IMG/VR virus record: IMGVR_UViG_2671180727_000014
Span: 1-29,026 of that record
Length of the DNA stretch: 29,026 nt
Source: a virus
Taxonomy: Duplodnaviria; Heunggongvirae; Uroviricota; Caudoviricetes
Strand: one strand, 5' to 3'
A program made the translations under genes and the position numbers. Each line of letters opens with the position of its first letter. The stretch's first letter is position 1. The notes beneath the pieces are model-generated. The model was given only the letters and a program-made list of their open reading frames with translations. It ran no database searches and was not told the origin of the DNA. Below are positions 5,094 through 24,512 of this stretch, in pieces.

Positions 5094-5111
5094 GGTAAGT
5101 AGTTACTTATC
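5094..5111. promoter_or_regulatory. palindrome-family site GGTAAGTAGTTACTTATC upstream of the AAA+ ATPase gene
   Basis: TAAGTA-GT-TACTTA inverted repeat, about 60 nt upstream of the ATG at 5032. Confidence 0.35.
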
Positions 5112-5127
5112 ATTAAGGCTGTTTTAA

Positions 5128-7236
5128 TTACTTCAAAATGATACGAGATAGTTCAGTAACTACAGATGAACCAAGACTATCAACACTAGTTACCAGGGCA
5201 TGATTTGCGTAAAATCTCTCCGGTGCATCAGTCATGATGCCAATTGCCATCAAATCAATGTCAGTCTGCGTTTCAATTTGCTTCGTAACCGAACGCAAAT
5301 GGGCGTCAAAACCTCTCCCAACAGCCCACGGCGCGCCATCGCTCAGAACAAGCATGATCTTCCTGTCCTCCAAGCGACCGGAAAATAACGATGCAAGGCT
5401 GGCTATGCTTTCACCATCCACGTTATTAAGAAGTGGGAATGTGTAGCCTACGCACCCCATACGTGAGCGAACTTCGCGAGAATTTGCTTTTTCATTCCAA
5501 TTTTTGATGATAGGTAGCATTAAAGATTCAAAGCGAGAGAACTCATATTTGATAGCCTTAAGTTCTCCTGCTGCCATATGACTGCCAAATGTAGTGAAGC
5601 CGGTGATAATGTTGGGAACATTTATTCGATCAAGTGCATCGGCGATGGTATATGCACTTGCAAGAGCTAGTTTTATCGTTTCGCCACTCATTGAACCCGA
5701 TAAATCAATCACTTGTTGAACACAGGCGTTAACGGCTTTAGATTCTTCTTTTTTACGAAACACGCGATCATCATTCATTGTTAATCTGTAGATACTTGAA
5801 CCATGAATGCGCCCCCGACGCTGGCCAGGTATAAACTGAACTCTGTTTCTGCTTGCTATTGCACGTTCCAGGTCTTTTGCCAGCGTCGACGAAACACCTG
5901 ACGAAAGGTGCTTTTCAATATATTTGTCGAAGAGTTGGTTGCCTTCAGGAACGATGCGATAACGGCTGATTGGATATCCACCTAAATCAATATCGGAGAA
6001 TGTTTTAATAAGCCGTTTGATATGGGCTTCTGCCTGATCAATCGAGCCGATGAAGTCGTATGAGCGATTGTATGGCCTGTATTCGCTTTTCGAGCTTTCT
6101 GTTAACTCGCTTTTAATCGTTTCGGATAGCGCATCTTCTGTCATGCCTCCGACTTCATCTTCCATGCTATCCAACTCCTCTAAAGCCTCTTCCAGACTCA
6201 TTTTTGACGGAGTTGGAATGTCTGAAGAGCCGTCTTCTGTCGTTTTTCTTTTTTCGTGGTCAGCGGTTAATGATTCTGACGCCGCGTTATCAGAAGCATC
6301 AGAATCTGATACCGCTTTATCATTTTCTGTATCATCGAATATTGTTTCTGATGATTCAGGATTATCTGAATCATCACTGTCGTTATTATCATGTTTGTGC
6401 TTACTATGTGACTCTGATTTAATAGATTTGTGATTATCTAACGATGAGGGTGTCTCATGATCTTCGTTGTCTTCATTGTTTTCTCCAGAGGCATCCGTCT
6501 GGTCAGCGTCTGAAGGATCGGAAGTTTTTCCCGGAGCTGACTCCTTACCTTTGCTTTCACTTTCAGTGTCTTTGAGGATCTTAGCTATGGTCGCAGCCAC
6601 CTTTACACAATCCTCGGTGCAAGACATGTTACGCACGGCCACATCGATACCATGTTCTTTTAATAATGAAATTGGTTTCTCAATGACAGGCCAATATTCA
6701 TCCATGAAATCTACGAACGGTGCTTGGCCATCCCAGGCTCTTACAACCGGACAGAGAAAGAAGTTTAGAAAAAGCGCGCGCTGATCTTTGCCACAATAAG
6801 CAATAGCCTCTGAAGCCTTTGGTTTAAAGACTTTTTCGATTATAAGGCGCTGAGTTGCCATCAGATTACGTCTTGTTCCGTTAAAGACCTGACCCATTTT
6901 TCGCTCGATGAACACGTCTTCTAAGGCATTCCATAGCGACCAGGAAGGAACGCGTCCTTTTTCTCTCATTTTGTTGGACACACGAATATCGGTAAACAAA
7001 ATGTGAGCAACCTCATGATCGAGAAATCCGCGCACAGCATTCATCAATGCCGGTGTTGCGTTATCCGGGATTGATGGGATGTTTACGAGAATTGGCTCTC
7101 CATCATCGTTATAGCGTACATAAGCGTCGTCCCCTCGTTCTGCAACAGGGATGTTTTTACCTGAAAGGAGAGCGACTACTCGTTTTACACTGTCACGGAA
7201 GTCCTGAACCTCTTTGATGGAACGTTTTTTAGACAT
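5128..7236 (-). CDS. von Willebrand factor A (vWA) domain protein, CobT-like partner of the AAA+ ATPase, 702 aa
   Basis: C-terminal vWA/MIDAS motif VIDLSGSMSG (DxSxS); central ~130 aa acidic Ser/Asp/Glu-rich low-complexity linker (DSDDSDNPESSETIFDDTEND...). Confidence 0.8.
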   Translation of the reverse strand: MSKKRSIKEVQDFRDSVKRVVALLSGKNIPVAERGDDAYVRYNDDGEPILVNIPSIPDNATPALMNAVRGFLDHEVAHILFTDIRVSNKMREKGRVPSWSLWNALEDVFIERKMGQVFNGTRRNLMATQRLIIEKVFKPKASEAIAYCGKDQRALFLNFFLCPVVRAWDGQAPFVDFMDEYWPVIEKPISLLKEHGIDVAVRNMSCTEDCVKVAATIAKILKDTESESKGKESAPGKTSDPSDADQTDASGENNEDNEDHETPSSLDNHKSIKSESHSKHKHDNNDSDDSDNPESSETIFDDTENDKAVSDSDASDNAASESLTADHEKRKTTEDGSSDIPTPSKMSLEEALEELDSMEDEVGGMTEDALSETIKSELTESSKSEYRPYNRSYDFIGSIDQAEAHIKRLIKTFSDIDLGGYPISRYRIVPEGNQLFDKYIEKHLSSGVSSTLAKDLERAIASRNRVQFIPGQRRGRIHGSSIYRLTMNDDRVFRKKEESKAVNACVQQVIDLSGSMSGETIKLALASAYTIADALDRINVPNIITGFTTFGSHMAAGELKAIKYEFSRFESLMLPIIKNWNEKANSREVRSRMGCVGYTFPLLNNVDGESIASLASLFSGRLEDRKIMLVLSDGAPWAVGRGFDAHLRSVTKQIETQTDIDLMAIGIMTDAPERFYANHALVTSVDSLGSSVVTELSRIILK

Positions 7237-7334
7237 GGCTAATCCTTTGTTATGAAAACAAATTATTTACTAGTGTGTTTAATGTAGCACTGCGCGAACA
7301 GGGAACTAAGTCATTCGCGCAGGGAGAAGAGGGG

Positions 7335-7547
7335 TTAACAGATTCTGACGGCTAAAGACCCGGAGCCGGTATTGAGAAGCGTGAAGCGTTTGTTGTTAAG
7401 TTCGAATATAAAGCCAGTTGTGTCATTCACACCAACCTGAATCTGCTCATTCGGTAGATCGGTGAGGATGTCAGCTACACACTCATCAGCTAATTTCTGT
7501 ACGTGTCCGATCTCAAGAGCGATTAGGCTGGAAATAGTGGTGTTCAT
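7335..7547 (-). CDS. hypothetical protein (70 aa)
   Basis: ORF only; position between the vWA gene and the divergent regulatory region. Confidence 0.3.
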   Translation of the reverse strand: MNTTISSLIALEIGHVQKLADECVADILTDLPNEQIQVGVNDTTGFIFELNNKRFTLLNTGSGSLAVRIC

Positions 7548-7724
7548 TCAATCAATCCATTCTAACTTATACTATGGTAAGGAATACTACTAAAATTTGT
7601 ATCAATACTGAATACATTCATATCATATGCAAGTTGATTTTCTTACCTATTTTGGGCTAATTTTTCTCCGTGCAATGGCCTTTAACCGGTCTTTTAAGTG
7701 CCTATCGAAAAAAATGATAATAGC

Positions 7725-7767
7725 TTTACAACCCTAACCTTTGATGTAATATCGGTAAGCACTTACC
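7725..7767 (+). promoter_or_regulatory. sigma70-like promoter (TTTACA-16nt-TAATAT) with a perfect palindromic operator GGTAAGCACTTACC just downstream of the -10
   Basis: TTTACA at 7725-7730, TAATAT at 7747-7752, palindrome GGTAAG-CA-CTTACC at 7754-7767, about 30 nt before the ATG of the HTH gene at 7799. Confidence 0.5.
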
Positions 7768-7798
7768 AGAGAGAATTGAACGCGCAAAGGTTGTAACC

Positions 7799-8185
7799 AT
7801 GTCTGATAACAAGATTGAATTTATAGAAAGTCGCTACGCTGCTTTTATCGCAGGGTTGATTGAATCCTCACCTATGAGTCAGGCCCAAATAGCCAGACTT
7901 ATTGGTTACAAAAATGCCAACAACCTTTCTTTAATTAAAAGTGGCAAAATTCCTTTGCCTATCGATAAGGTTCGTCCGTTGGCGCTGGCGCTGGGTATTG
8001 AGCCAAGTCGTCTTATGATGATGGTGCTGGAAGAACGCCAACCTGAACTCGCAGCATTTTTATACAAAGAAGGCACCGCTCCTCTTAACGAGGACGAAAA
8101 ACAGGTTCTTGCTGCATATAACGAGCGATTCGGTAAAGAGAAAGGCGCATCACAAAAGGTTGTTGAGGCCATAAAGTCTCTATGA
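7799..8185 (+). CDS. helix-turn-helix (XRE/Cro-CI-like) transcriptional regulator, 128 aa
   Basis: HTH-like segment SQAQIARLIGYKNANNLSLIKSGKIP; divergent from and convergent-overlapping with the recombinase gene; palindromic operator in its own promoter. Confidence 0.6.
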   Translation: MSDNKIEFIESRYAAFIAGLIESSPMSQAQIARLIGYKNANNLSLIKSGKIPLPIDKVRPLALALGIEPSRLMMMVLEERQPELAAFLYKEGTAPLNEDEKQVLAAYNERFGKEKGASQKVVEAIKSL

Positions 8186-9283
8186 AAAATTTACACGAAT
8201 AAGCTCTGTTGATAGACGATCTCCCTTAAATTTGTGGTCAATTTCGTCTAAATCCGGTTGCTCTACGATTGATGCGATGTACGTCGAGAAACTTTCTAAG
8301 GCGTCTCGCATCTCGTCCATATAATCGTGCCGGTCGTAGACCCGATCTATCCCCTCAAGACTGTGGTTCATGATTTTACGTGATACCTCCTGGCTTATGC
8401 CTAATGCTGGGAAGTAACTACGCGCAGTACGGCGCAAATCTCGGGGTGTAAATGGCTCAAGCTCCATCAGTTCTGGTCGTTCCAGAATACGACGTAATGC
8501 CTGGGCTATTGCCACTTTAGACATAGGAAGGTCTTTCCCGATTTTTTTATTCGAAGGCACGAGCCACTGGCTGTCTTTACCATATTCGAACAACTCTTCA
8601 ATACAAGTGCGCATTAATGAGCTTAAAGGCAGAGAATGCTCACGGGCAGATTTGTTCCTCTTGCCTTGATTCCAAACCCCACGCTTAAGATTGAACTCAC
8701 TTTTTTTAGCCCGCAGTACTTCGTCAGGTCGTCTTGCGGATACAAGACATAGCCTGGCCGCCCATTTTGTACCAGCACACACATTGAAGTAGTCCCATAT
8801 ATTCCAGAACACCCATACCTCTGCGTCGGTCAGCTTCCGCTCGCGAGGTGTGGGCTTTGCGCCACCGGCAACTTTGTTAAGTGACATATCGTTTAACGGT
8901 GACACGTCTATCATCCCCTGGAAGGCGCACCAGCTAAGGAACTGCTTCATCAGAGAGAAAACGCGGCGGCCCATAACAATTTTGCCATCCAGTATTAGTG
9001 GGTTGACCAGTTGGTTCACCATGAACCTATTAATGTCACTTACTTTTACATCGGCAATGTGCGGCAAAACATGTATCAAAATACAATGAACAGCGATCTC
9101 TGGCCGACGTCTGGTTATCAGCAGAGATAAGCGAGTGAATAACATGAATGCGTCCGAGAATCTCATGTCATTGCTGACCTGGGAGATCATAACGGCCTGC
9201 ATTTGAGATGCTCTTTCGAGATACTCTATCGCCTCTTTTGAGGTGTTCTCCGCAGCGCGTGCTCTGTCAAAGCTATTTTTCAT
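8180..9283 (-). CDS. tyrosine site-specific recombinase (integrase/resolvase family), 367 aa
   Basis: C-terminal catalytic-region pattern: ...ARRPDEVLRA..., FTPRDLRRTARSY (HxLRxT-like box), IMNHS, and the putative catalytic Tyr in RVYDRH. Confidence 0.75.
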   Translation of the reverse strand: MKNSFDRARAAENTSKEAIEYLERASQMQAVMISQVSNDMRFSDAFMLFTRLSLLITRRRPEIAVHCILIHVLPHIADVKVSDINRFMVNQLVNPLILDGKIVMGRRVFSLMKQFLSWCAFQGMIDVSPLNDMSLNKVAGGAKPTPRERKLTDAEVWVFWNIWDYFNVCAGTKWAARLCLVSARRPDEVLRAKKSEFNLKRGVWNQGKRNKSAREHSLPLSSLMRTCIEELFEYGKDSQWLVPSNKKIGKDLPMSKVAIAQALRRILERPELMELEPFTPRDLRRTARSYFPALGISQEVSRKIMNHSLEGIDRVYDRHDYMDEMRDALESFSTYIASIVEQPDLDEIDHKFKGDRLSTELIRVNFS

Positions 9284-9381
9284 ATGACAATCACCGAGTT
9301 ACGCCGATGCACTGTATAAGTAAACAGTATATTAGGCATAGATTCTTATAGGATCAAGAGTAAAAGTAACTCATTTTCAGC

Positions 9382-9414
9382 AATGATTCCATACATAGTA
9401 GGTATGGAATCATT
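9382..9414. repeat. lox/dif-like site: perfect 13-bp inverted repeats flanking a 7-bp asymmetric spacer (AATGATTCCATAC-ATAGTAG-GTATGGAATCATT)
   Basis: Read directly from the sequence; lies about 100 bp upstream of the tyrosine recombinase start codon (9283). Confidence 0.55.
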
Positions 9415-9493
9415 TAGACGTTGTTTTTTGAATTTTAAGGGAAACAGGAGTGAGTTTGGTGGGAATAAAAACGGCTCTTGTGAGCCGTTTAAA

Positions 9494-9739
9494 TCAGAGG
9501 GTGCTGACGTATGCAGCCAGTTCTGTGTATCCGCCAATCGGTTGGCCATTGATCAGTACCTGGGGGATAGTCTCTACCGGTTTACCAACAATTTCACTAA
9601 GTTTTTCCTTGTCGATACCGGCAGTGGTGATGTCGATGTACTCATAATCACCGTAGCCATGTCCCTTTAGTTGCTTCGCCAGCTCGACCGCACGTTTGCA
9701 GTATGAACAGTTATCTCGTCCGTAGATAACGACTTTCAT
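9494..9739 (-). CDS. glutaredoxin-like redoxin (NrdH/Grx-type), about 81 aa
   Basis: Thioredoxin-fold signature with CxxC active site: KVVIYGRDNCSYCKRAVEL. ORF track starts at a GTG at 9742; the adjacent ATG at 9739 is the likelier start. Confidence 0.85.
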   Translation of the reverse strand: MKVVIYGRDNCSYCKRAVELAKQLKGHGYGDYEYIDITTAGIDKEKLSEIVGKPVETIPQVLINGQPIGGYTELAAYVSTL

Positions 9740-9864
9740 CACTTCACCTCGTGCAACTGCTGTTCATTAACGATGATTGTGCCAATTTCGCAGTAGTGGA
9801 TACATGGTTTTGACTTCAGTGCCTGATGAGCTGCGCGACGCGCCTGTTTACGTTTGTTTCCCAT
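9739..9864 (-). CDS. small basic protein (41 aa, MGNKRKQARRAAHQALKSKPCIHYCEIGTIIVNEQQLHEVK), translationally coupled to the glutaredoxin gene
   Basis: Hand-translated from the minus strand; its TGA stop overlaps the glutaredoxin ATG (ATGA overlap); AAGGA about 8 nt upstream of its ATG. Below the ORF-track size cutoff. Confidence 0.3.
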   Translation of the reverse strand: MGNKRKQARRAAHQALKSKPCIHYCEIGTIIVNEQQLHEVK

Positions 9865-9912
9865 ATTGAGTCCTTTTAAGTGAATAATGAAAGAACTATA
9901 CCGACAAATAAT

Positions 9913-9928
9913 AGGTAAGTCATTACCT
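9913..9928. promoter_or_regulatory. palindromic site AGGTAAGT-CATTACCT upstream of the small ORF/glutaredoxin operon
   Basis: Inverted repeat AGGTAA/TTACCT; member of the dispersed GGTAAG/CTTACC palindrome family. Confidence 0.4.
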
Positions 9929-9943
9929 ATTATTTGTGCATTA

Positions 9944-9964
9944 TCCCTCTACATAGTAGAGGGA
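9944..9964. other. perfect hairpin (9-bp stem TCCCTCTAC/GTAGAGGGA, 3-nt loop) just downstream of the HNH gene stop
   Basis: Read directly; no clear U-tract on either strand, so terminator function is uncertain. Confidence 0.4.
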
Positions 9965-9976
9965 TATCGTCATGAC

Positions 9977-10789
9977 TCACGGCAGTTTTGCTCTAATTTC
10001 GAGTAATTTCTGTGCCGTTATGCTGATTTCATACGCCAGATCTTGTGTTTGGTTAATGATTCCGTAATAGCGCTCAACCTGATCAGGATAAAAACGTCTG
10101 ATATGGGGGATATCGATATAATCATAATACCCAAGCCCTCCAGCAGAATGTTCTCTGAACAGCGCCCAAAAGTTGTTCACTTTCCCGACCAACTCCATAC
10201 GGATTGTTTCTAAAACAACATCATTGAAGCTGTAAAAGGGGTTATGGGCAATATTATCAAATGCGTAGAGAGGGTCGGTAATGTCGGTGCTAACTTTTGC
10301 CCGGAACTGTTCGCTCTTCAGCATTTGGAGGTAGTTGTAATTAAAAATATCAGTAATGGCTTTTAAAACACCGACGTCTCTTTCTGAGTAATTGTTCTGA
10401 CTCACCTGGTGCGTCATCTGTAGCAGAAGAGATTGTTGAGTTTCGGCCAGCTGCTTCCAGTTTTTCAATTGCTCAACGGAATAGATAGTGTAGTCAGAGT
10501 CAATGAGTGCGCCATGTGAACGACACATCCATATACCGTTATCAATCGAGCTTCGCTGTTCTGGGGTTAAGCTAGGATCATATCTCGGTCCACCTGGCGC
10601 TGCTGCTGTAATATGTGCCGCAATACCATTATTAATCCTGCTGTTTGTATCACTGCTATCTGGACCTACAGTTGTCTGGTTGCAGCCAGGATAAGAGCAC
10701 TTCCAGCCTACGCGTTCGGCTAGTGTTCGCTTCACCGATGGGGAAAAATCATCTCTGTTACTCACATTTAACCTCGCAGTGTTAAACAA
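9977..10789 (-). CDS. HNH-nuclease-domain protein with a C-terminal domain of unknown function, 270 aa
   Basis: N-terminal HNH-like motif: GWKCSYPGCNQ ... AAHITAAAPGGPRYD ... DNGIWMCRSHGALID. The C-terminal ~170 aa has no motif I recognise. Confidence 0.65.
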   Translation of the reverse strand: MFNTARLNVSNRDDFSPSVKRTLAERVGWKCSYPGCNQTTVGPDSSDTNSRINNGIAAHITAAAPGGPRYDPSLTPEQRSSIDNGIWMCRSHGALIDSDYTIYSVEQLKNWKQLAETQQSLLLQMTHQVSQNNYSERDVGVLKAITDIFNYNYLQMLKSEQFRAKVSTDITDPLYAFDNIAHNPFYSFNDVVLETIRMELVGKVNNFWALFREHSAGGLGYYDYIDIPHIRRFYPDQVERYYGIINQTQDLAYEISITAQKLLEIRAKLP

Positions 10790-10796
10790 TCTATGG

Positions 10797-11351
10797 CTAT
10801 TTGCGTTTGTCTTCTTTCAAGCGTGAAACTTTAATCATCTTATCGGTGATAGAAAGCAATGTTACACCCTCTTTTTCGTTCACAAAGCCTGCACCGTTAA
10901 TCACCATTACTAAACGATCCTTCCCTCGATAGACTTCATAATACTTGCCTGCACCACAGGTCTTTGTCTCAATACAGTCCATACCTGAGATAGCTTCTTG
11001 GTCGAAAATTCTGTCTTTCGTTGCTACCGGTTTTCCGTACTCCCTTGTCATCATTTCACCGATCTGCATGAACGTATACTTACCGACATTTGTCGTTAAA
11101 GACGATTCAACCTTTCCATCAATGAGATTTCCATGCGTATGTGGTTCCTGTTCATTCGGTGCATTTTTATCTTGAAGAGCGAATACCTCAATACTGGGTG
11201 TTTGCTCTTGGAACTGGGCTTTATAGTTCTGTGCAAGATCGCTTTTATCTCTACCTATTAAGGTAATTTTGTCGATCTCCGATTCGTTACATCCCGTCAG
11301 AGCGAGCATGATTACCAGAGAGGCAAGAATATTGAGGTTGCGCTTATTCAT
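10797..11351 (-). CDS. lipoprotein (signal peptide with lipobox LTGC), about 184 aa
   Basis: MNKRNLNILASLVIMLALTGCNE; GGAG about 8 nt upstream of the ATG at 11351 (ORF track starts at an upstream GTG at 11378); 8-nt gap to the HNH gene on the same strand. Confidence 0.65.
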   Translation of the reverse strand: MNKRNLNILASLVIMLALTGCNESEIDKITLIGRDKSDLAQNYKAQFQEQTPSIEVFALQDKNAPNEQEPHTHGNLIDGKVESSLTTNVGKYTFMQIGEMMTREYGKPVATKDRIFDQEAISGMDCIETKTCGAGKYYEVYRGKDRLVMVINGAGFVNEKEGVTLLSITDKMIKVSRLKEDKRK

Positions 11352-11478
11352 TGGCTTATCTCCATGTTTTTCTGCCACATCCTGTCACCCACATGCAGGC
11401 AGTCTAATGCTGCCGTTGCTAAATGAAGACCCAAAAGTGGTAAAACCATACCTGGAAATATTCTGGAGTCAACCCAGT

Positions 11479-11503
11479 AAAAAAGGGGCCGAAGCCCCTT
11501 TGA
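11479..11503 (-). terminator. intrinsic terminator downstream of the tRNA cluster (minus strand)
   Basis: Minus-strand reading gives AAAGGGGC-UUCG-GCCCCUUU followed by a U-tract (plus strand: aaaaaaggggccgaagcccctttgaatttt). Confidence 0.7.
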
Positions 11504-11575
11504 ATTTTGCGCTGAAAAAAGTGTTGCTAGGATGTTAGCAAGCTATGGTTAAGAACGTCTGCCGTAATTGTCTAT

Positions 11576-11653
11576 CACAGCGTTGAGCGGTCTGGTTTAT
11601 GTTAGCGGAGTCTTAATCTGGGTGATTAAAAGGCCAAACCGCTCAACGCTGTG
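11576..11653 (-). other. 78-nt structured element: perfect 15-bp inverted repeat (CACAGCGTTGAGCGG / CCGCTCAACGCTGTG) enclosing a 48-nt loop, directly 3' of tRNA-Ser
   Basis: Read directly; no tRNA T-arm motif, so not a canonical tRNA. Confidence 0.45.
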
Positions 11654-11655
11654 TC

Positions 11656-11742
11656 TGGCGGAGAGTAATGGAATCGAACCATCATCGCTTGCGCAATGGG
11701 ACGGTTTTCAAGACCGCTTGAGCACCATGCTCCCTACTCTCC
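11656..11742 (-). tRNA. tRNA-Ser (anticodon UGA), long variable arm, CCA encoded
   Basis: Reverse complement GGAGAGT...GCGGT-CTTGAAA-ACCGT...GATGG-TTCGATT-CCATT-ACTCTCC-G-CCA: 7-bp acceptor stem, anticodon loop CU-UGA-AA, T-loop TTCGATT. The D-arm is not fully resolved by hand. Confidence 0.7.
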
Positions 11743-11966
11743 GGCCGTTGTGGTGGCCGGTACTGAATCTCCGGCATACGGTGCAGCCAATTAGGACTAC
11801 GGACGATCACCGCTCGCGAAAGGGAAGATTTGCGGCCGCATTTCCCTAACATCCAAGAAAGCTATCGCATCAGTCTGCGAATCCACCACAACGGTAAGAT
11901 CACTACCTTTCGACCAGTCATTGTGCACATGAACGACGATTAACCGTAATGATCTTATCGTTGTAT

Positions 11967-12042
11967 TGGTGCCGGTTAGCGGACTCGAACCGCTGACATC
12001 CTGCTTACAAGGCAGGCGCTCTACCAACTGAGCTAAACCGGC
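11967..12042 (-). tRNA. tRNA-Thr (anticodon UGU), CCA encoded
   Basis: Reverse complement GCCGGTTTAGCTCAGTTGGTAGAGCGCCTGCCTTGTAAGCAGGATGTCAGCGGTTCGAGTCCGCTAACCGGCACCA: perfect 7-bp acceptor stem, anticodon loop CTTGTAA, T-loop GGTTCGAGTCC. Confidence 0.85.
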
Positions 12043-12046
12043 AATT

Positions 12047-12787: not shown

Positions 12788-12960
12788 GCGTTCTGCAATC
12801 ACACTCGCTCAGTGTGTCCCATTTCGGTAACGAGGCTGGAAACTGACCTCGCTGGTGTTTGGCTTATTAGGCTACTGCCAGATAGACTTCTTCGTTTGCA
12901 CTTGTATTTAAGTTCAAACAGTCGCGTCTCAACGAAAACAAAGTCATCTTATACATAAAA

Positions 12961-12982
12961 GATAAGTAAGTAAATACTTATC
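12961..12982. promoter_or_regulatory. palindromic site GATAAGTA-AGTAAA-TACTTATC
   Basis: 8-bp inverted repeat arms; member of the dispersed TAAGTA/TACTTA palindrome family. Confidence 0.35.
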
Positions 12983-12991
12983 ATTGTATTT

Positions 12992-15429: not shown

Positions 15430-15496
15430 AATTACCGCCAGAAATAATCTTGTGCTTACCTATCATTATTTGCGTAAAAAACGACACACAGAGAGC

Positions 15497-16273: not shown

Positions 16274-16313
16274 ACCAACTCCTAGCTAACAGATGAAAGT
16301 ATTCTTACAGAAA

Positions 16314-16334
16314 GATAAGTAATCATCTACTTAT
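16314..16334. promoter_or_regulatory. palindromic site ATAAGTA-ATCATC-TACTTAT upstream of the 258-aa gene
   Basis: Inverted repeat read directly; same TAAGTA/TACTTA family. Confidence 0.35.
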
Positions 16335-16348
16335 TTTAGCGGCACTTG

Positions 16349-17602: not shown

Positions 17603-17611
17603 GCTTATTTT

Positions 17612-18952
17612 TTAGGTAACGTCTAAGATTCGCTCAATGAAGCGCATTTGTTCGAGGTTTTGTTTAACGCGAATGCTGATCCCTCCCTGCTGGTTACGTG
17701 AACCAGCAAAGTAGAGACGAGCCTCTCCTTTCGCTTCTTCTTCTTCGGTTTTGTTGATCGTTATTACCAGGTCAGCAATACGTACTTTTTCGATGTTGTC
17801 GGCAGCGTGCATCATTGTGGCAACTTCTGACGCGCCACCTTCACGGTTTGTCTGCGATGCCGTGATACCAGCAACGTTGTGTTTGTCATAAAGAGCACGT
17901 AAGTCGGTATAGATACTACGTATGTTGGCGCGATCATCACGAAGGTCATAACTGGCACGCATCAAATCTGCATAGTCGACAACAACCATGTCAGGCACCA
18001 TGCCATTGGCTTTCATGCTGTTAAGCATACGATCCAGATCTGCCGGTGACATACTTCCTGACGGACGCTCAACAACCCACAAACTACCAATCCCCTTCGT
18101 GGCTCCCAACTCTGCCAACTTACGATGAACCTCATCGCGCCGTTCCACCAGCTTGGACATTTCTGTCTCCGACAATCTTGCATCAAAACGGTCGGATAAA
18201 ATGGTGGTGTGAACCTCCAGCGAGAGATACAGAACATTGTAGCCAGCAAGCGTTGCGTTTATGGAAAACTCACCCATTGCGGTCGATTTACCGGATTTAG
18301 CGAACCCCATGAAGAGCACCATTTCACGCTTCGCCCAGCCTTTTTGGTACAGCAACCTATCGAGCAGAGGGAGTCCAGTTGTAATGCTGTTTGGCACATA
18401 CTCCTCTGAAGCCTCATATTCACGCGCTTTCAATCGCTCACTTGCGGAGGTGTAGTAGTCATAGATTCCGGTCGCTTCGTTCGATCCAATCTGCTGAACC
18501 TTGGCCATGATTGCCATCGCCCCCTGAAAGTCGCCCTTCTCTTTCAGTTCAGCAGCCTTAATCAGAGCATCATCAAACGCTACGCTTTTTGCGAAGGTTG
18601 ATACCTGGTCAACCATGTACGAGGTATCAGACAATTTTTCTGCAAGGATGCGCTTAAACGCAGCAACAACATCGGCGAATAGTTCCTCACGGATAGTCTT
18701 ATCGCGTTTCGCACGCTTAAGCATATCCAGAACCGCAGATGAAGAGGGCGCGCTCTTGTACATACGGTAATAGCCCGAAACCATATTAACCAATATGGCA
18801 TTGGCCGCATTGGCAAATTGGCTAGGTACAACCAGATCTCCAGCACGAGTAAGAAACTCGTGATCACGACAAAAATAGGCCGTCAATCTGTTCTGAAAAT
18901 CTTCATCAAACTCTTCGGACAGCCCGCGTCCTGTATGGCAAAGTTCGGTCAT
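17612..18952 (-). CDS. DnaB-family replicative helicase, 446 aa
   Basis: C-terminal RecA-like domain with Walker A GFAKSGKST and Walker B-like region VVVDYADLM. Confidence 0.8.
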   Translation of the reverse strand: MTELCHTGRGLSEEFDEDFQNRLTAYFCRDHEFLTRAGDLVVPSQFANAANAILVNMVSGYYRMYKSAPSSSAVLDMLKRAKRDKTIREELFADVVAAFKRILAEKLSDTSYMVDQVSTFAKSVAFDDALIKAAELKEKGDFQGAMAIMAKVQQIGSNEATGIYDYYTSASERLKAREYEASEEYVPNSITTGLPLLDRLLYQKGWAKREMVLFMGFAKSGKSTAMGEFSINATLAGYNVLYLSLEVHTTILSDRFDARLSETEMSKLVERRDEVHRKLAELGATKGIGSLWVVERPSGSMSPADLDRMLNSMKANGMVPDMVVVDYADLMRASYDLRDDRANIRSIYTDLRALYDKHNVAGITASQTNREGGASEVATMMHAADNIEKVRIADLVITINKTEEEEAKGEARLYFAGSRNQQGGISIRVKQNLEQMRFIERILDVT

Positions 18953-18995
18953 GTGCTTTCCTTTGTTTTTTAAACAAATTGTTTTCTAGTATTAG

Positions 18996-19745
18996 TTAAT
19001 TAGATAGGGGATCAATAAACCGCCGTGCTTCTTCCAGTTCTTCTGGAAAGTGGGCGGAAATAAGGCGCTCTGGAACGATTTCCATTAGCCAGATAGCGGA
19101 GAAAATTGCGCGTATGCGCTTGCTGCGGGGGATGGTGCGTAAACGCTCCAGAATCCACTCAAAATAGCTTTCCTGAATCGGGTTGAACTGCATGTCTCCC
19201 ATATTCTTAAAGCTAACGAGAGAGTCATCCAGACGGGTTGTTGCGCGTCTGGCTAATTTCTCTTCGAATATCTCAATCAGCTCTGGCTGCCACAAATGCT
19301 GTGGGCGCGGCAGCTTGTCCCACAGCCGTCGTGCAGCTGCGGAAAGAACGGTGGAGATAAAGTAGTCGTATGAGCAGCAATAGCGATCCGCAAACTGGCG
19401 TGCTTTCCATAGCGACGTTTTATTGGCAGTCGACAACTCCTGATAAGGCAGGCGTTTTAACCCGGTGGTGAACGGAGCTGTTTCAAAGTGTTCGCGACCG
19501 TGCGTCAGCATGATATTTGAGTACTGACGTTTGTATGCCTCCGTAAAAAGACAGGTGGCCATGAGAGGATGCATGTCGCGGTAATCAAACCACTTCGTCT
19601 CGAAGAGTTCAGCCTCGTCTTTACAGCGCGACAAACCAATGTTTTCAGCGACCCACTTGTCCATAACAGCGGTATTCCACTCTGTCATGAAGTCGTACTG
19701 GTCGTTGTCGATGGTATCGAAAAAGATTTGGCTCATGTGGCTCAC
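18996..19745 (-). CDS. hypothetical protein, 249 aa
   Basis: ORF; no recognisable motif. My hand translation near 19680-19745 was off by one base from the ORF track, so the exact start is uncertain. Confidence 0.5.
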   Translation of the reverse strand: MSHMSQIFFDTIDNDQYDFMTEWNTAVMDKWVAENIGLSRCKDEAELFETKWFDYRDMHPLMATCLFTEAYKRQYSNIMLTHGREHFETAPFTTGLKRLPYQELSTANKTSLWKARQFADRYCCSYDYFISTVLSAAARRLWDKLPRPQHLWQPELIEIFEEKLARRATTRLDDSLVSFKNMGDMQFNPIQESYFEWILERLRTIPRSKRIRAIFSAIWLMEIVPERLISAHFPEELEEARRFIDPLSN

Positions 19746-19747
19746 CT

Positions 19748-19770
19748 GGTAGGTAGTTACTTACTTATCA
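19748..19770. promoter_or_regulatory. palindrome-family site GGTAGGTAGTTACTTACTTATCA; a second palindrome AATAAGT-T-ACTTATT lies at 19871-19887
   Basis: Read directly in the AT-rich divergent region between the 249-aa gene and the GIY-YIG gene. Confidence 0.35.
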
Positions 19771-20018
19771 CAATGAGCGGATGATAGCGACTGGTGGCAG
19801 TTTTTGGAAGTGGAAACGGAAGGGAGTTGTTCTGGTGGTGTCTTTTAAAAGACCTGCTTCCGTATATATTTAATAAGTTACTTATTATTTATATATACAG
19901 AAGCAGGCATAACTTGTCGTCTTAGACGCCCAGAAGCTCTACACTTTGAGCCTGTTAAATTGATTAAAAACTTATGTGTAAAATAGAACGCATTAGTCAG
20001 TAGCAAAGAGATGCAATA

Positions 20019-20786
20019 ATGGACGATTTATCGGTATACGCGAGATCATTGGATAAGGCTAAATACTATGTTTACTGTCTCTATGATACAGAAGACAAGA
20101 TGAAAAGACCGTTTTACATAGGAAAAGGCAAATCGACTCGTTGTCTCGATCACATCAAGTATCCCGATGACTCTCCCAAATCCATGCGGATCAAAGAACT
20201 TTTGGCTAATAAAAAATTAGGCATAGATATACTTCGTCATGGTATGGATGAAACCACAGCCAAACTTGTTGAGGCGACATGCATCGACCTTATGGGGGTC
20301 GGAGAGCTTACGAATAAGGTACGAGGAAGTGGTTCCATGATGGGCAGAATATCACTGGACGCCTACCATCACTTAGTGCTGCAAGAGGAAACTGAAATTG
20401 CTCCTGAGCACGCCGGTCTTGCCTTCCTGCTAAACAGCACCTACAAGTCAGGAATGTCCGCTCTGGCATTATATGAAGCTACGCGTGGCGTATGGGCAAA
20501 GGTTCCAAGAGACGAGAATCTCAAATATGCCTACGCTACATATGGTGGGCTGATAATGGAAGTTTATCAGATTGAATGCTGGGTCAAAGCCGGTTCTCAG
20601 CAGTACTTTACAAGGGATATAGCTCTTGGCCCCGACACAAAACGTTATGAATTTGTTGGCAGAATAGCCGATGAGCATATTAGAAAACTGTATGTAGGCA
20701 AATTAATCAAGAAGCCACCAAGCTACGGTAGCCCTTTTGTGAAGGTTGGGGTGGTTAGGACTGAACATAGTGTTAGCGCGGCATAA
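20019..20786 (+). CDS. GIY-YIG nuclease-domain protein with an uncharacterised C-terminal domain, 255 aa
   Basis: N-terminal GIY-YIG signature YYVYCLYDTEDKMKRPFYIGKGKSTRCLDH; the C-terminal ~150 aa has no motif I can name; solitary plus-strand gene with its own terminator. Confidence 0.65.
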   Translation: MDDLSVYARSLDKAKYYVYCLYDTEDKMKRPFYIGKGKSTRCLDHIKYPDDSPKSMRIKELLANKKLGIDILRHGMDETTAKLVEATCIDLMGVGELTNKVRGSGSMMGRISLDAYHHLVLQEETEIAPEHAGLAFLLNSTYKSGMSALALYEATRGVWAKVPRDENLKYAYATYGGLIMEVYQIECWVKAGSQQYFTRDIALGPDTKRYEFVGRIADEHIRKLYVGKLIKKPPSYGSPFVKVGVVRTEHSVSAA

Positions 20787-21866: not shown

Positions 21867-22184
21867 TGGAGAGTTCCCTTTGCGTATATAATTATCGTCT
21901 GAAACAACTTGTTTTCTTATATGTGATATAGCCTAAATGCCTACGGCTGCGGTGTAAAGGTTAAATGGTAGGTTGTGATTAACAATTGGCAATCATAGCT
22001 TGTATTTGTCTGTTGAAAAAAGTAACAATGACCTCTATATTACAAGTACGGTGATATGCCGTACACAATTTGATAATGCACACGTAATGGGCTATAGCCT
22101 TTTAAAGTAATTTTTGAGTCGAAAACTCAGTTTGAACAGAGGAGATTGATGGCCTTCCTACATCACGGCCATCAGGAGGAATAC

Positions 22185-23231: not shown

Positions 23232-23403
23232 TCACCACTTTCACTGTGTTTTGAAGTCGTTTTCTGTCTTCCTGTTTTGCCTTCTCTTCCATTGCTCGTC
23301 GCGCCGCATTCCCGCCCATCGTGTAAGCGCCGACAAGAACGAAAAGAACGGCAGCCAGCGTAATCAAAGCAACTTTTAGCTTTGTCATCAGGCTGCCTAG
23401 CAT
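23152..23403 (-). CDS. putative i-spanin (N-terminal transmembrane helix, charged periplasmic region), 83 aa
   Basis: LKVALITLAAVLFVLVGAY followed by a charged helical segment (RRAMEEKAKQEDRKRLQ). Confidence 0.45.
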   Translation of the reverse strand: MLGSLMTKLKVALITLAAVLFVLVGAYTMGGNAARRAMEEKAKQEDRKRLQNTVKVVNETSSKIRQKDASAVHRELYDKWVRH

Positions 23404-23404
23404 A

Positions 23405-24124
23405 TTAGACCATCCCTTTCTGGTGTTTTCTTACCTGCGACCAGGCAATGAATCCTGCCACAACAATAGTGGCAATACCGAAGATGATGCGTACTGTATC
23501 CCCGCTAGAGATATGACCTTGTGCTTTATCCATAGCAGCGGAAACCTGCGGCATAACATCGGCCAGCTGCGCCAGACCAATACCTGCTGTAACAGTTGCG
23601 CCTGCGGTTTCTTTAGTTACAGGAACAGCCTTCACGGTTTTCACCGGCTTAACAACGCCAGCTCGACGCAGACCTTCCTCAATAACTTCTGCCGCATACC
23701 AGGTGTTCAGCGTTTTTAGCGGGCCTCGGCCATTCTCGTGGCGAATGATTGCCTCAACCAAAGGTCGAAGGATGTCGTAATCATGCAGATCGATGATCAT
23801 GTCTGCGGTTACACCAACGGCTTTAGACACCTCATTAATGTAGGCGTCAGTATTGTTTTCATTCGGCGGTGCCCAGCGTTCAATAACTTCACGAATGGTA
23901 TCGATACTTGTGCCGTCTTTTGCGCGACGTTTATCGTGGTAGGTAATTAGAGTCACCGCCAGCGCACGAATCCCCCAAACAGGGTCTTTAAACGTGCAAA
24001 AGCGCGGTTCGGCAGGGTTGTCGATTAGCCCCTGCCACGGCGAACCTTTGTCGAGGTTGCCAGGGTTGTTATTACGAATGCCTCTCGGAGTTTTCATCCT
24101 TGATCTCCTGTTATTGCAGTCCAT
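23405..24124 (-). CDS. candidate cell-wall hydrolase (endolysin-position protein) with a C-terminal transmembrane anchor, 239 aa
   Basis: Conserved-looking motifs GIRNNNPGNL...WQG and RWAPPNENNTDAYI; C-terminal hydrophobic helix IIFGIATIVVAGFIAW; located between a holin-like gene and the spanins. Enzymatic class not established. Confidence 0.4.
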   Translation of the reverse strand: MDCNNRRSRMKTPRGIRNNNPGNLDKGSPWQGLIDNPAEPRFCTFKDPVWGIRALAVTLITYHDKRRAKDGTSIDTIREVIERWAPPNENNTDAYINEVSKAVGVTADMIIDLHDYDILRPLVEAIIRHENGRGPLKTLNTWYAAEVIEEGLRRAGVVKPVKTVKAVPVTKETAGATVTAGIGLAQLADVMPQVSAAMDKAQGHISSGDTVRIIFGIATIVVAGFIAWSQVRKHQKGMV

Positions 24125-24446
24125 TCTTCACGCCATAAGCGGCCAGACCCAGCAGCAGCGCGGTAATCAGGAACGACGTTATCTTTGAGATAATGCCGCC
24201 AAAGAACCCGCTGGAGATGGCGTCTAGCCGATTAAGTAGTTTGTCCAGGTTGGAGTGCTGAATGCTGTGTTGCGAAGGCGTCATATCGCCAAAGTAGGCT
24301 TTGAGCTGGTCGTTGACCTCCTGGCCAATTTCCTCACGCAACTCCTTACCTAATTTGCCGACAACTTCACGCGCAACGATAGCGGCAATGCGCTCTACCT
24401 GCTCTGGCGTTACGCCTGCCATCTCGTTCGACATTATTTCCTCCAT
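24111..24446 (-). CDS. holin-position membrane protein (single C-terminal transmembrane helix), 111 aa
   Basis: C-terminal helix ITSFLITALLLGLAAYGV; first gene of the lysis cluster; GGAGG ribosome-binding site upstream of the ATG. Confidence 0.35.
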   Translation of the reverse strand: MEEIMSNEMAGVTPEQVERIAAIVAREVVGKLGKELREEIGQEVNDQLKAYFGDMTPSQHSIQHSNLDKLLNRLDAISSGFFGGIISKITSFLITALLLGLAAYGVKNGLQ

Positions 24447-24495
24447 GAATCGTCAAATCGGGATGGCGGTTTTATATCATAAAACGCCCACACTT

Positions 24496-24512
24496 GGTAG
24501 GTAAGTACTTAC
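24496..24512. promoter_or_regulatory. perfect 12-bp palindrome GTAAGTACTTAC (with flanking GGTAG) upstream of the lysis cluster; a candidate -10 TATGAT lies downstream on the minus strand
   Basis: Read directly, about 55 nt upstream of the holin-like ATG. Confidence 0.4.

Follow-up and report, generated by a model that had tools for sequence, protein, structure and literature searches.

The L5 repressor gp71 of the cluster A mycobacteriophages binds as a monomer to stoperators, i.e., asymmetric 13-mers lying in one orientation. The C1 repressor of P1, which is unrelated to XRE-type proteins, has asymmetric 17-mer operators (ATTGCTCTAATAAATTT) that serve chiefly early functions together with the late activator, and the late promoters of this phage carry an inverted repeat upstream of the -10, bound by the activator Lpa. 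KorB of the IncP plasmid RK2 is a ParB-family protein able to act at a distance.

The window studied here, i.e., the whole stretch of 29,026 nucleotides from IMG/VR record IMGVR_UViG_2671180727_000014, is part of an Escherichia coli phage-plasmid of the SSU5/pHCM2 type with ~97-98% identity to phage Cyrano. It carries a family of TAAG palindromes, a motif for which a literature search found no published account. The system appears to be one of dispersed prophage-repressor operators, a kind already known from other phages. As with cluster A stoperators, one repressor-type site recurs genome-wide some two to three dozen times, in the short gaps between genes of early as well as late (structural) operons and often next to a stop codon, and is presumed to silence the prophage beyond its main switch. 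Unlike those of L5, the sites are palindromic, 18-26 bp long and suited to a dimer; host, phage type (a Gram-negative phage-plasmid) and repressor family (small XRE) also differ, and a block to elongation is here only proposed. With P1 C1 the system shares an enterobacterial plasmid prophage whose immunity repressor would act at many operators round a ~100-kb genome and not at one switch region, but here the sites are palindromic and lie also inside head, tail and lysis modules, and the candidate regulator is XRE-type. The modelled fold of this candidate is similar to the Cro/CI-type (XRE) repressors (434, P22 c2, restriction-modification C-proteins and SaPI Stl), with which the system further shares a symmetric site, independent half-site arms and a putative autoregulatory operator at the regulator's own promoter. 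Those repressors, however, use few clustered operators in one switch, whereas ~30 sites are dispersed here, their arms are tandem 4-bp repeats, and the candidate has no peptidase domain although Cyrano is inducible with ciprofloxacin. As for KorA/KorB, which act at about a dozen copies round the RK2 backbone, a repeated palindromic operator would coordinate many operons; unlike the KorB sites, those found here show no link to the element's ParB-like genes in the evidence at hand.

We lean towards the view that the palindromes are operators of the phage-plasmid's own repressor, most probably the 128-aa XRE-type helix-turn-helix (HTH) regulator encoded at 7799-8185, and the dispersed sites most likely keep the virus silent during plasmid life. 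Protein binding at the sites, the HTH protein as their binder, repression and a roadblock role are all what we infer.

Palindrome family and intergenic confinement

An earlier sequence-only reading had described dispersed GGTAAG/CTTACC and TAAGTA/TACTTA palindromes confined to intergenic regions. These are real, with every quoted sequence present where it had been placed, and they amount to nine copies of one palindrome in the window, six strong and three weak, of which eight are intergenic and the weakest (87-112) extends onto the dnaE stop codon. Intergenic DNA makes up 12% of the window and holds 7 of the 8 copies of TAAGTA (binomial p 3e-6) and 6 of the 11 copies of TACTTA (p 9e-4), against 1.15 and 1.44 copies, respectively, in dinucleotide-shuffled intergenic DNA. 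A 26-bp symmetric matrix, trained partly on Cyrano (~97% identical to the window) and of which the hexamer tests are independent, gave six window sites of at least 20 bits (starting at 5088, 9908, 12959, 16312, 19746 and 24494), all intergenic. With the threshold lowered to 12 bits, 9 of 10 window matches were intergenic vs 0.02 expected, and at 18 bits or more dinucleotide shuffles yielded 0.00 sites, whether intergenic DNA or the whole window was shuffled. The intergenic excess over coding DNA and shuffled controls is thus clear for hexamers and matrix alike. Phased TANN runs of at least four units numbered 16, 13 and 8 vs 0.9, 0.3 and 0.2 in shuffles, and an unbiased scan of the whole Cyrano genome returned TAAGTA/ATAAGTA as the top intergenic-enriched word.

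That composition or stop codons produce the pattern as a side effect, given that a TAAG repeat supplies stops in three frames on both strands, or that it is the relic of a small mobile element, is scarcely credible. It is true that TAAGTAAGTAA carries TAA in three frames and that in many cases the site overlaps the stop of the preceding gene. However, the shuffles leave essentially no sites, the sites are orthologous and conserved across relatives rather than variably inserted, and Acinetobacter and Cupriavidus have TCAGTCAG...CTGACTGA with the same architecture and location and no stop codons; these TCAG-type relatives refute the stop-codon and composition explanation.

The spacer between half-sites had seemed to vary from 0 to 6 nt, which proved to be an artefact of the TAAG repeat inside the arms, since all window sites align without gaps in one fixed frame, TARGTAAG-NN-CTTACYTA (18 bp, or 26 bp with the flanks ATGA...TCAT). 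Within each arm a 4-bp unit is repeated in tandem. Across three genomes, TARG and CYTA units were 2, 6 or 10 nt apart in 15, 36 and 22 intergenic cases, and 0-5 cases fell at each other value; the repetition of TAAG inside each arm accounts for these apparent spacings. A dimer would thereby read a single fixed 18-bp site.

The family had been thought limited to 5094-24512, to operon starts and to replication, lysis and accessory operons; it extends instead over the whole phage genome, head, tail and lysis genes included, and lies inside operons as well. Cyrano has 22 sites of at least 18 bits, 21 of them in the 13% of its genome that is intergenic, structural and lysis modules included. For the whole element we estimate about 25-30 sites in a ~108-kb genome, in short gaps between lytic genes of the replication, recombination, nucleotide-metabolism, head, tail and lysis modules.

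Sites in the window

The first strong site, 5088..5113 (sense on the minus strand, ATGA TAAG TAAC ta CTTA CCAT, 20.2 bits), is found between the stop of a cobT-like gene (5128) and the start of an AAA ATPase gene (5032), and its ortholog is retained in Cyrano, SSU5, Klebsiella and Y. pestis, where the flanks have diverged. At 9908..9933 (ATAA TAGG TAAG tc ATTA CCTA TTAT, 26.5 bits) the putative operator is upstream of a glutaredoxin-like gene (9494-9742) and overlaps a predicted minus-strand promoter, ATGACT-17-TATAGT. The highest score in the window, 29.2 bits, belongs to 12959..12984 (minus strand, ATGA TAAG TATT ta CTTA CTTA TCTT), directly past the stop of gene 12992-13282 and upstream of the tRNA cluster region, with orthologs in Cyrano, SSU5, pHCM2 and Klebsiella.

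The site at 16312..16337 (minus strand, AAAA TAAG TAGA tg ATTA CTTA TCTT, 23.3 bits) has the outer units only, with an extended -10-like sequence, TGTAAGAAT, coming directly after it; gene 15497-16273 is downstream of the site, which is kept in SSU5. CYRAN_34, the Cyrano gene behind this strong site, is moderately expressed in the lysogen, at ~6x the Cyrano background of the published data, which speaks against the repressor reading. At 19746..19771 (minus strand, GTGA TAAG TAAG ta ACTA CCTA CCAG, 22.8 bits) the site ends 10 nt 5' of the ATG at 19736 of a phrog_2500 gene, and it has orthologs in Cyrano, SSU5 and Klebsiella. The last strong site, 24494..24519 (TTGG TAGG TAAG ta CTTA CACA, 20.6 bits), overlaps the stop codon of a gene for a receptor-recognising protein (24509-25348) and precedes the lysis cassette, in which the holin-like gene is 24111-24446; its orthologs precede the holin gene in Cyrano, SSU5 and Klebsiella.

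Two weaker matches have one good arm. That at 15441..15466 (minus strand, ATGATAGGTAAG..., 12.1 bits) is between genes 15497-16273 and 14959-15429 and reaches 15.1 bits in Cyrano. The marginal site at 87..112 (TTACTTAT, 10.2 bits) overlaps the dnaE stop codon, and the Cyrano dnaE stop has the sequence TAAGTAA there too.

The HTH regulator and other candidate binders

The gene at 7799..8185 (plus strand) encodes the candidate prophage repressor. Its product matches phrog_8 (transcriptional regulator) and, below cut-off, Pfam HTH_19 and HTH_37, all Pfam matches being XRE-type HTH. Structures similar to its AF2 model (pLDDT 74) are those of Stl, C-proteins, SinR, 434 Cro and P22 c2. Promoter scan and conservation point to a sigma70-like promoter at 7725..7752 (plus strand; TTTACA, 16-nt spacer, TAATAT), and the GGTAAG-CA-CTTACC reported between its -10 and the gene is indeed found there: the core GGTAAGCACTTACC at 7754-7767, 1 nt past the -10, lies within a weak putative operator at 7748..7773. 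With 11.8 bits and the core only, this operator of the HTH gene is itself weak. The arrangement TTTACA-N16-TAATAT-N-(G/A)GTAA(G/A)-NN-CTTACC is the best-conserved block of this intergenic region in E. coli, pHCM2, Klebsiella and the L012 lineage.

Wherever a relative offers enough flanking sequence, the gene is syntenic. It is divergent from a small gene and the cobT-like gene in E. coli, Salmonella, Klebsiella, Kluyvera, Buttiauxella and Y. pestis, and likewise in three Acinetobacter lineages, Cupriavidus, Paraburkholderia, Massilia and a Pseudohongiellaceae MAG, and annotated loci show the full order of small gene, cobT-like gene, AAA gene and dnaE. In the LF82 lysogen the Cyrano HTH ortholog is expressed ~10x above background, and the lytic genes are near background.

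The proposal that this HTH protein is the simplest binder fits its conserved auto-operator, synteny and lysogen expression and the covariation of motif letter and helix 3 described below. In the plasmid state, repressor on the sites would cover sigma70-type promoters (-35, spacer, -10 or start site); at sites inside operons, some just 11-25 nt before the next start codon, elongating polymerase may be blocked; and the weaker core-only site right after the -10 of the HTH promoter could give negative autoregulation.

A less probable reading is that the operators are real but have a different binder encoded by the element, for which a lytic-cycle regulator, a Cro-like partner and a ParB/KorB-like global regulator are candidates, the HTH protein controlling only its own promoter through a look-alike core. 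The auto-operator has the inner core only and the family's lowest score, and in the L012 lineage the dispersed sites changed to TATG and the auto-operator did not; against this, its inner core is the family core in both sequence and geometry. Cyrano, SSU5 and the Acinetobacter element all carry ParB-family genes, with one site ~27 nt upstream of parB, but these genes are missing from the published list of lysogen genes above background. A search short of whole proteomes found no second regulator syntenic in all lineages. SSU5 keeps the sites and has no HTH gene, which would favour another binder, yet this absence is due to a recent 7.5-kb deletion relative to pHCM2 (flanks 96-98% identical), so the retained sites are uninformative either way.

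Relation to promoters

The sequence-only reading had left repressor and activator side by side. Repression is clearly favoured, since the position of the sites relative to sigma70-like promoters varies. A promoter of this kind overlaps the site in 15 of 54 cases on the sense strand, compared with 4 of 54 on the antisense strand, and the -10 falls anywhere from -14 to +31 of the site centre. Orthologs preserve the arrangement; in one example (TTGAAA-17-TATCAT) the spacer holds the site, and in another (TTTACA-17-TAGTAT) the -10 is at its centre. No promoter element was conserved at a fixed distance beyond +/-13 of the site. About 39 of the 54 strong sites have no recognisable sigma70-like promoter, and canonical promoters in the window are rarer than chance (14 vs 30 in shuffles), therefore lytic transcription may need an additional factor.

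This scarcity would also suit palindromes that form the activator-binding parts of phage-specific middle or late promoters, like the P1 late promoters, which we regard as unlikely. The right flank is -10-like ~7-8 nt from the centre (TATAAT/TATACT in two Acinetobacter lineages, weakly TATCAT in E. coli), and CYRAN_12, 56 and 60, behind sites, rise far above their upstream neighbours in macrophage samples, hence transcription starts near those sites. However, flank conservation is weak (0.3-0.5 bit) and symmetric, the -10 has the wide range given above, and several sites are 11-25 nt before a start codon, overlapping the ribosome-binding site. Still other sites are placed after a stop codon and before a terminator, or immediately past the -10 of the HTH promoter, and some are within promoters with good -35/-10 hexamers at 17-bp spacing, which need no activator.

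Arm covariation and distant relatives

A nucleic-acid structure, either RNA hairpins (processing, stability or translational control) or single-stranded DNA hairpins (priming or packaging), is disfavoured, and we consider it very improbable. The sites are palindromic and intercistronic and would be transcribed inside operons, and at the site upstream of the gp32-like gene the outer arms vary between lineages yet remain complementary. Across the family, however, Watson-Crick pairing of the arms equals the column-frequency expectation at 13 of 13 positions, i.e., covariation at none, and G.T mismatches (63) are not above A.C (57). The arms act as independent half-sites, with sequence conserved and not pairing, which argues against hairpins, whose stems would moreover be short and A+U-rich. 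In distant lineages identical letters change on both arms, as expected of a symmetric reader of double-stranded DNA.

One such change is GTAA to GTCA, a single motif letter, in Acinetobacter and three betaproteobacterial relatives with the same architecture. A. baumannii CP155459 has ~24 sites of the form ATCAGTCA-N4-TGACTGAT in 90 kb, and Cupriavidus, Paraburkholderia and Massilia share its GTCA-type core. All GTAA lineages have L or F at the helix-3 position aligned to L45 of the window's HTH protein, and 4/4 GTCA lineages have M, a correlation over ~8 phylogenetically non-independent lineages. This tracking of the variable base speaks for the HTH protein rather than another binder, and the CP155459 protein is nevertheless, over its whole sequence, closest to enterobacterial ones (48% vs 35-38% to other GTCA types). 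Since all element proteins co-diverge, the binder may also be some other conserved DNA-binding protein, e.g., a lytic regulator or one of the ParB/KorB type. In the L012 lineage only the left units became TATG, the right units still being CTTA and the HTH auto-operator unchanged, and a betaproteobacterial MAG is mixed, with GTAA on the left and GTCA on the right; both one-sided changes are at odds with the prediction for a symmetric homodimer. Overall, a regulon under one protein fits the indirect tests of auto-operator, synteny, lysogen expression and covariation; the activator option became less likely, and the original extent of the regulon, the variable spacer and the member at 19871 fell away.

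Other palindromes

The TAAGTA at 9317 was rejected as a family member, being part of a LexA box. At position 19871 lies the midpoint of a ~60-bp palindrome from a separate family; Cyrano has two full copies of it, together with a single arm where its linear record ends, and SSU5 has two.

The element and the comparison set

By megablast, the window shares 97–98% identity with phage Cyrano (OV696614) and with plasmids such as pXH988_2 over 84–96% of its length, and is ~81% identical to Salmonella phage SSU5; judged by these matches, it is part of an E. coli SSU5/pHCM2-type phage-plasmid. The annotated genes are dnaE, an AAA ATPase gene, a CobT-like gene, a small 70-aa gene, a divergent gene for a helix-turn-helix regulator (7799-8185, hereafter HTH), an integrase gene, ligase, primase, DnaB-like helicase and ParA genes, a KacAT-like toxin-antitoxin pair, a lysis cassette and tail-fibre genes, with ParB-like genes elsewhere in the element. 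The Cyrano record runs in the opposite orientation, such that most window genes lie on the - strand.

Sites were compared across the whole of Cyrano, 100 kb of SSU5 and 50 kb of a Klebsiella relative, and a symmetric, 26-bp matrix was built on the sites of these three genomes. This matrix is not independent of the window, to which Cyrano is nearly identical, whereas the word counts are. More distant syntenic elements were drawn from a plasmid collection and a scan of species-representative genomes. Sigma70-like promoters were taken as those with at least 9 of 12 consensus matches, their start sites being unmapped.

Distribution of the sites

The sequence-only reading described a dispersed family of GGTAAG/CTTACC and TAAGTA/TACTTA palindromes confined to intergenic regions. 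All the sequences it quoted were found at the positions it gave, and the confinement is borne out by word counts: seven of eight copies of TAAGTA and six of 11 copies of TACTTA are intergenic, although intergenic DNA makes up 12% of the window, and dinucleotide-shuffled intergenic DNA holds 1.15 and 1.44 copies respectively. An unbiased scan of the whole of Cyrano returned TAAGTA, ATAAGTA and ATAAGTAA as the words most enriched in intergenic DNA, ATAAGTA being intergenic in 17 of its 20 copies (p = 6e-13). With the 26-bp matrix, six window sites reach at least 20 bits (5088, 9908, 12959, 16312, 19746 and 24494), all of them intergenic, and the family stands up to shuffled controls, as no site of at least 20 bits arose when the intergenic DNA was shuffled 300 times and the whole window 100 times. 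Three further sites are weaker (7748, at the HTH promoter, 15441 and 87). The GGTAAG/CTTACC half-sites at 7576 and 7642 are unconserved in relatives and probably due to chance; TAAGTA at 9317 falls inside a LexA box, and the supposed member at 19871 turned out to be the centre of a separate ~60-bp palindrome.

Beyond the window, Cyrano has 22 sites of at least 18 bits, 21 of them intergenic, although this intergenic set includes one copy (78096) of that separate palindrome. Sites of at least 10 bits number 28 in SSU5 (100 kb) and 15 in the Klebsiella half-genome (50 kb), in orthologous places. They lie in the terminase-portal gap, after the capsid gene, between tail genes and before the holin, as well as before replication, recombination and nucleotide-metabolism genes. 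The earlier description of sites upstream of replication and lysis operons therefore stands for the replication genes and the holin, but was too narrow in extent, since the sites are spread genome-wide and also occupy terminase, portal, capsid and tail gaps. In Cyrano they sit at a median of 24 nt past the end of the previous gene and 54 nt before the next start codon (range 12–760 nt); some lie 11–25 nt from the next start codon, over its ribosome-binding site, and others between a stop codon and a terminator.

Geometry of the sites

Strong sites consist of TA dinucleotides at a 4-bp phase, TARG TAAG TA(NN) ... TACT TACY TA, and the three genomes contain 16, 13 and 8 phased TANN runs of at least four units, where shuffles yield 0.9, 0.3 and 0.2. 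The full site reads a b / b' a', i.e., TARG TAAG NN CTTA CYTA, with weaker flanks ATGA...TCAT. Within intergenic DNA the distance from TARG to CYTA is 2, 6 or 10 nt (15, 36 and 22 cases), with 0–5 cases at each other distance; the distances are quantised in this way because each arm tandemly repeats a 4-bp unit and different unit pairs are being measured. The spacer of 0–6 nt that had seemed to vary between half-sites is thus an artefact of this internal repeat, for a single frame fits every window site without gaps, including GGTAAGCACTTACC at 7754-7767, and the geometry is consequently not unusual for a dimer.

A typical site keeps three of the four units, the outer being retained more often than the inner, and three-unit sites have lost an inner unit more often than an outer one; in the window the signal is carried by the outer units. 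A few sites are perfectly palindromic in a frame moved by 2 bp per arm, e.g., GTAAGTA-CA-TACTTAC. Two staggered dimers reading TAAG-N6-CTTA, in the manner of a Fur box, found no specific support as an explanation: counted per combination, N6 combinations in two-unit sites are no commoner than N2 or N10, and the few perfect N6 palindromes stay odd. AGTNA-N4-TNACT was also rejected as a family-wide core, having many matches in relatives whose core carries GTCA but none in the window.

A probable reader of duplex DNA

The unsymmetrised site profile is close to mirror-symmetric, and across the 54 strong sites the arms act as independent half-sites. Watson-Crick pairing matches the expectation from column frequencies at 13 of 13 mirrored positions, including the polymorphic position 7 (AT 14, GC 13, AC 13, GT 8), and G.T mismatches (63) are no commoner than A.C mismatches (57). 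Independent arms and the lack of a G.T excess argue against a hairpin of RNA or DNA, a reading rejected on this test of covariation and wobble, and for a symmetric reader of duplex DNA. Compensatory pairing, a G+C-rich stem and a U tract, the marks of a structured RNA or intrinsic terminator, were not what the sites displayed, and a terminator scan of positions 1-20000 had no family site among its results.

Other readings fared no better. A three-frame stop-codon cassette made of TAAG repeats is contradicted by TCAG-type relatives, whose sites are built in the same way but contain no stop codons. A role as a -10-like promoter element read by a phage sigma factor (cf. T4 TATAAATA) would not account for a symmetric motif whose distance to start codons is not fixed, and some sites lie over ribosome-binding sites or ahead of terminators. 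The family consensus does not match the LexA (SOS) box, CTGT-N8-ACAG, to which only a separate element at 9312-9331 corresponds. A host factor is an unlikely reader because the motif letters follow the element and not the host genus, two Acinetobacter elements having different letters. Taken as a whole, the palindromes are probably protein-binding operators of a regulator encoded by the element.

Promoters and expression

Sigma70-like promoters, scored as consensus matches only, overlap 15 of the 54 sites in sense and four in antisense, leaving 39 without a recognisable promoter. The -10 lies anywhere from -14 to +31 relative to the site centre, and no conserved element was seen at a fixed distance beyond +/-13 of the centre. 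Orthologs keep their promoter-site arrangements. A TTGAAA-17-TATCAT or TATGAT promoter has the site in its spacer at 57443 and 3524 in Cyrano and at 55692 and 3541 in SSU5, and TTTACA-17-TAGTAT has its -10 at the site centre in Cyrano (59396), SSU5 and Klebsiella. Within the window, 1 nt separates the HTH promoter (TTTACA-16-TAATAT) from the core operator downstream of it, and the site at 9913 sits on the -35 of ATGACT-17-TATAGT. Such varied placement points to a repressor rather than an activator, as repressors tolerate it and activators do not, and some of the site-bearing promoters look strong enough to need silencing. Activator-dependent late promoters of the P1 Lpa type, with an inverted repeat at a fixed distance before the -10, are not a fit to a -10 that ranges from -14 to +31.

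According to published RNA-seq data, almost all lytic genes of Cyrano stay at background in the LF82 lysogen; among the genes expressed are HTH, toxin-antitoxin pairs, the ParA operon and RepA. Macrophage samples in this dataset show CYRAN_12, 56 and 60, which lie immediately behind sites, climbing well beyond the genes upstream of them, so that inducible promoters lie at those sites.

The HTH regulator as candidate reader

HTH, an XRE-type protein of 128 aa, has weak matches to HTH_19 and HTH_37 and a match to phrog_8. The nearest structures to its AF2 model (pLDDT 74) are Stl, C-proteins, a Salmonella phage repressor, SinR, HigA, 434 Cro and P22 c2, all with weak Foldseek E-values, and no solved structure related to it by sequence was found. 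As would be expected of a repressor gene, it stands beside a divergently transcribed lytic operon, has an operator of its own in the promoter region (7748-7773) and is expressed in the lysogen. In E. coli, pHCM2, Klebsiella and a fourth lineage, its promoter and operator are conserved as an island, while the rest of the intergenic region has diverged. By tblastn the gene was found in 996 plasmids, nearly always beside the integrase, with relatives at 64% identity in Y. pestis (pMT1-type) plasmids and at 38–48% in ~110-kb Acinetobacter plasmids. Among other candidates, the small divergent 70-aa gene (7335-7547) has no DNA-binding signature, the ParB-like genes show no link to the motif, and an FljA-like repressor of Cyrano and SSU5, matching the Pfam family Flag1_repress (phase-1 flagellin repressor), does not stand out as a binder, since FljA itself works on flagellin mRNA.

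SSU5 has no copy of HTH and retains the sites. Compared with pHCM2, however, it has a 7.5-kb deletion with flanks 96–98% identical (42596-42761 in the SSU5 segment L005 against 8506-16043 in pHCM2, L011), in which the small gene, HTH, the integrase and the glutaredoxin, gp49-like and PhoH genes were lost. On this alignment SSU5 arose by a recent deletion from a phage-plasmid resembling pHCM2 and is so not a counter-example to HTH as reader. SSU5 was reportedly isolated as a lytic phage, and the deletion may explain that behaviour. The Klebsiella phage ST13-OXA48phi12.3 is uninformative as an HTH-less control, its record ending at the cobT-like gene.

The best evidence for HTH as reader comes from distant relatives. 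HTH occupies the same divergent position in each syntenic relative with enough flank, and each distant relative has its own dispersed intergenic palindrome, built alike but in other letters. A. baumannii CP155459 carries ATCAGTCA-N4-TGACTGAT at ~24 sites in 90 kb, and the same GTCA-type core occurs in Cupriavidus; Paraburkholderia has ATAGTCA-N4-TGACTAT, Massilia has AGTCA-N4-TGACT (two perfect matches against 0.11 expected), and A. baumannii p5388_2 and A. geminorum share TTAGTAAG-NN-CTTACTAA. The recognition-helix residue aligned to L45 of the window protein is L or F in all lineages whose core is GTAA and M in four of four whose core is GTCA, even though the CP155459 protein is nearest overall to the enterobacterial ones (48%, against 35–38% to other GTCA types). 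This covariation between a residue and the site letters is as would be expected if HTH reads the sites, across lineages that are few and not independent.

Binding of the dispersed sites by another protein is a less likely reading that several observations keep alive. In one E. coli lineage (contig ABZCOC010000014, L012/L013) the HTH helix is KYQNQVSF and the left units have become TATG in five or six sites (19030, 17337, 7217 and others), with the right units still CTTA and the auto-operator unchanged; a symmetric homodimer would not be expected to bring about change on one side only, and PLSDB and the complete E. coli genomes contained no further sequence of this lineage. A beta-proteobacterial MAG similarly combines left-hand GTAA with right-hand GTCA. 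Moreover, no family member is weaker than the auto-operator, a promoter can be recognised at only a minority of the sites, and the window has fewer canonical promoters than expected. Set against these points, the position, expression and helix residue of HTH tip the balance slightly towards its binding the dispersed sites and acting as a repressor.

Comparison with known systems and implications

As in Cro/CI-type (XRE) operators, the sites are symmetric, with fixed half-site spacing and independently constrained arms, and the likeness extends to fold and autoregulation; the difference is ~30 dispersed sites in place of one switch. With the stoperators of mycobacteriophage L5 (gp71) the family shares a spread of dozens of sites over short intergenic gaps in both early and late operons, here including those between terminase, portal, capsid, tail and lysis genes; but the L5 sites are asymmetric, in a single orientation and bound by another repressor family, whereas the present sites are palindromic. 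The likeness to an L5-type elongation block is positional only, in sites inside operons 11–25 nt from the next start codon. P1 C1 operators are also dispersed, yet have an asymmetric 17-bp consensus and a C1-family repressor, where here the site is symmetric and the regulator matches XRE-type HTH models only.

It is conceivable, though we think it doubtful in its full extent, that one small XRE repressor silences the whole ~100-kb genome of SSU5-type phage-plasmids (S. Typhi pHCM2, Y. pestis pMT1, resistance-carrying Klebsiella and Acinetobacter elements) at ~30 palindromic sites, through promoter occlusion and stoperator-like roadblocks in structural operons. A one-residue/one-base code (helix-3 L/F for GTAA, M for GTCA), switched more than once across Proteobacteria, would then set the specificity of this repressor and with it the immunity group.

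SSU5/pHCM2-type elements are common in clinical Enterobacteriaceae and Acinetobacter. Lysogeny control in these phage-plasmids is essentially undescribed, and literature searches, including searches for the site sequences, found no operator, promoter or repressor study of them. The site set offers a defined candidate operator of 18–26 bp, a named candidate repressor and a genome-wide map of the presumed regulon, with GTAA and GTCA as predicted immunity types. It also allows the lytic isolate SSU5 to be explained as a derivative without the repressor module, provides a marker for recognising distant members of the group, and through the tandem 4-bp sub-repeat in each arm explains away the apparently variable spacers.

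Other repeats and additional observations

The ~60-bp palindrome, ACCTGCTTC(C/T)GTATATA...TATATAC(A/G)GAAGCAGG, is present in the window as ACCTGCTTCCGTATATATTTAATAAGTTACTTATTATTTATATATACAGAAGCAGG (19854-19915), in the divergent region near parA. Cyrano has two full copies (31160 and 78085) and one arm (108343) at the end of the linear record, and SSU5 two copies (33459 and 78305). It is a repeat family of its own, possibly centromere-like or bound by another regulator. A further dispersed palindrome, (G)AAAACAATTTGTTT(T), occurs at about 18960-18985, 7240-7265 and 21890-21915 (-), 22–37 nt upstream of the start codons of the helicase, cobT-like and parA genes and just before their ribosome-binding sites; AATTTGTT has eight intergenic and no coding copies in Cyrano. 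This palindrome is probably another regulator's site or a translational operator.

The LexA box TACTGTTTACTTATACAGTG (9312-9331, -), a good one, follows a TAATAT -10, lies ~30 nt upstream of the integrase gene (8180-9283) and is conserved in Cyrano and Klebsiella. As the integrase gene is convergent with HTH (7799-8185), with a 6-nt overlap, SOS-induced transcription would cross HTH antisense, toward the small gene and the lytic operon, and could provide an induction route for a repressor without a peptidase domain. In macrophages, the integrase, HTH and CYRAN_46 signals of the LF82 RNA-seq go up together.

The FljA-like protein is encoded outside the window, by CYRAN_114 in Cyrano (L004 780-1301, annotated as a transcriptional regulator) and SSU5_121 in SSU5 (L006 46897-47343, a transcriptional repressor); its match to the FljA family (Flag1_repress; repressor of phase-1 flagellin) is full-length (E = 1e-80), and the protein is possibly a moron that acts on flagellin expression in the host. 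In p5388_2 a gene annotated as a sigma-70 family sigma factor (L009 1004-1669), with a weak Pfam Sigma70_r2 match (E = 0.003), follows a MoxR/AAA ATPase gene. No counterpart is present at the same position of the window, which has only a 66-aa ORF (3591-3794) matching phrog_6337.

Four tRNA genes (Ser-tga, Thr-tgt, Tyr-gta and Asn-gtt) are clustered at 11656-12213 (-), of which the Cyrano record annotates three only, and the ORF at 11797-12084 is spurious, overlapping the tRNA-Thr and tRNA-Tyr genes. A 255-aa ORF (20019-20786, +) with a LEM-3-like GIY-YIG nuclease domain runs opposite to its neighbours; RefSeq agrees on the + strand, whereas the Cyrano record puts an ORF (CYRAN_30) on the other strand there. 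The 3' part of the receptor-recognising (tail-fibre adhesin) gene (24509-24994) is 89–96% identical to adhesin genes of T4-like phages, an identity which indicates that this siphovirus phage-plasmid and T-even phages exchange host-range determinants.

Between the small gene and the cobT-like gene lies a G+C-rich inverted repeat, CTGCGCGAA...TTCGCGCAG (7237-7334). In the macrophage samples of the LF82 RNA-seq the small gene (CYRAN_46) is up ~90-fold and the cobT-like gene only ~6-fold, which suggests a transcription stop or attenuator at this repeat.
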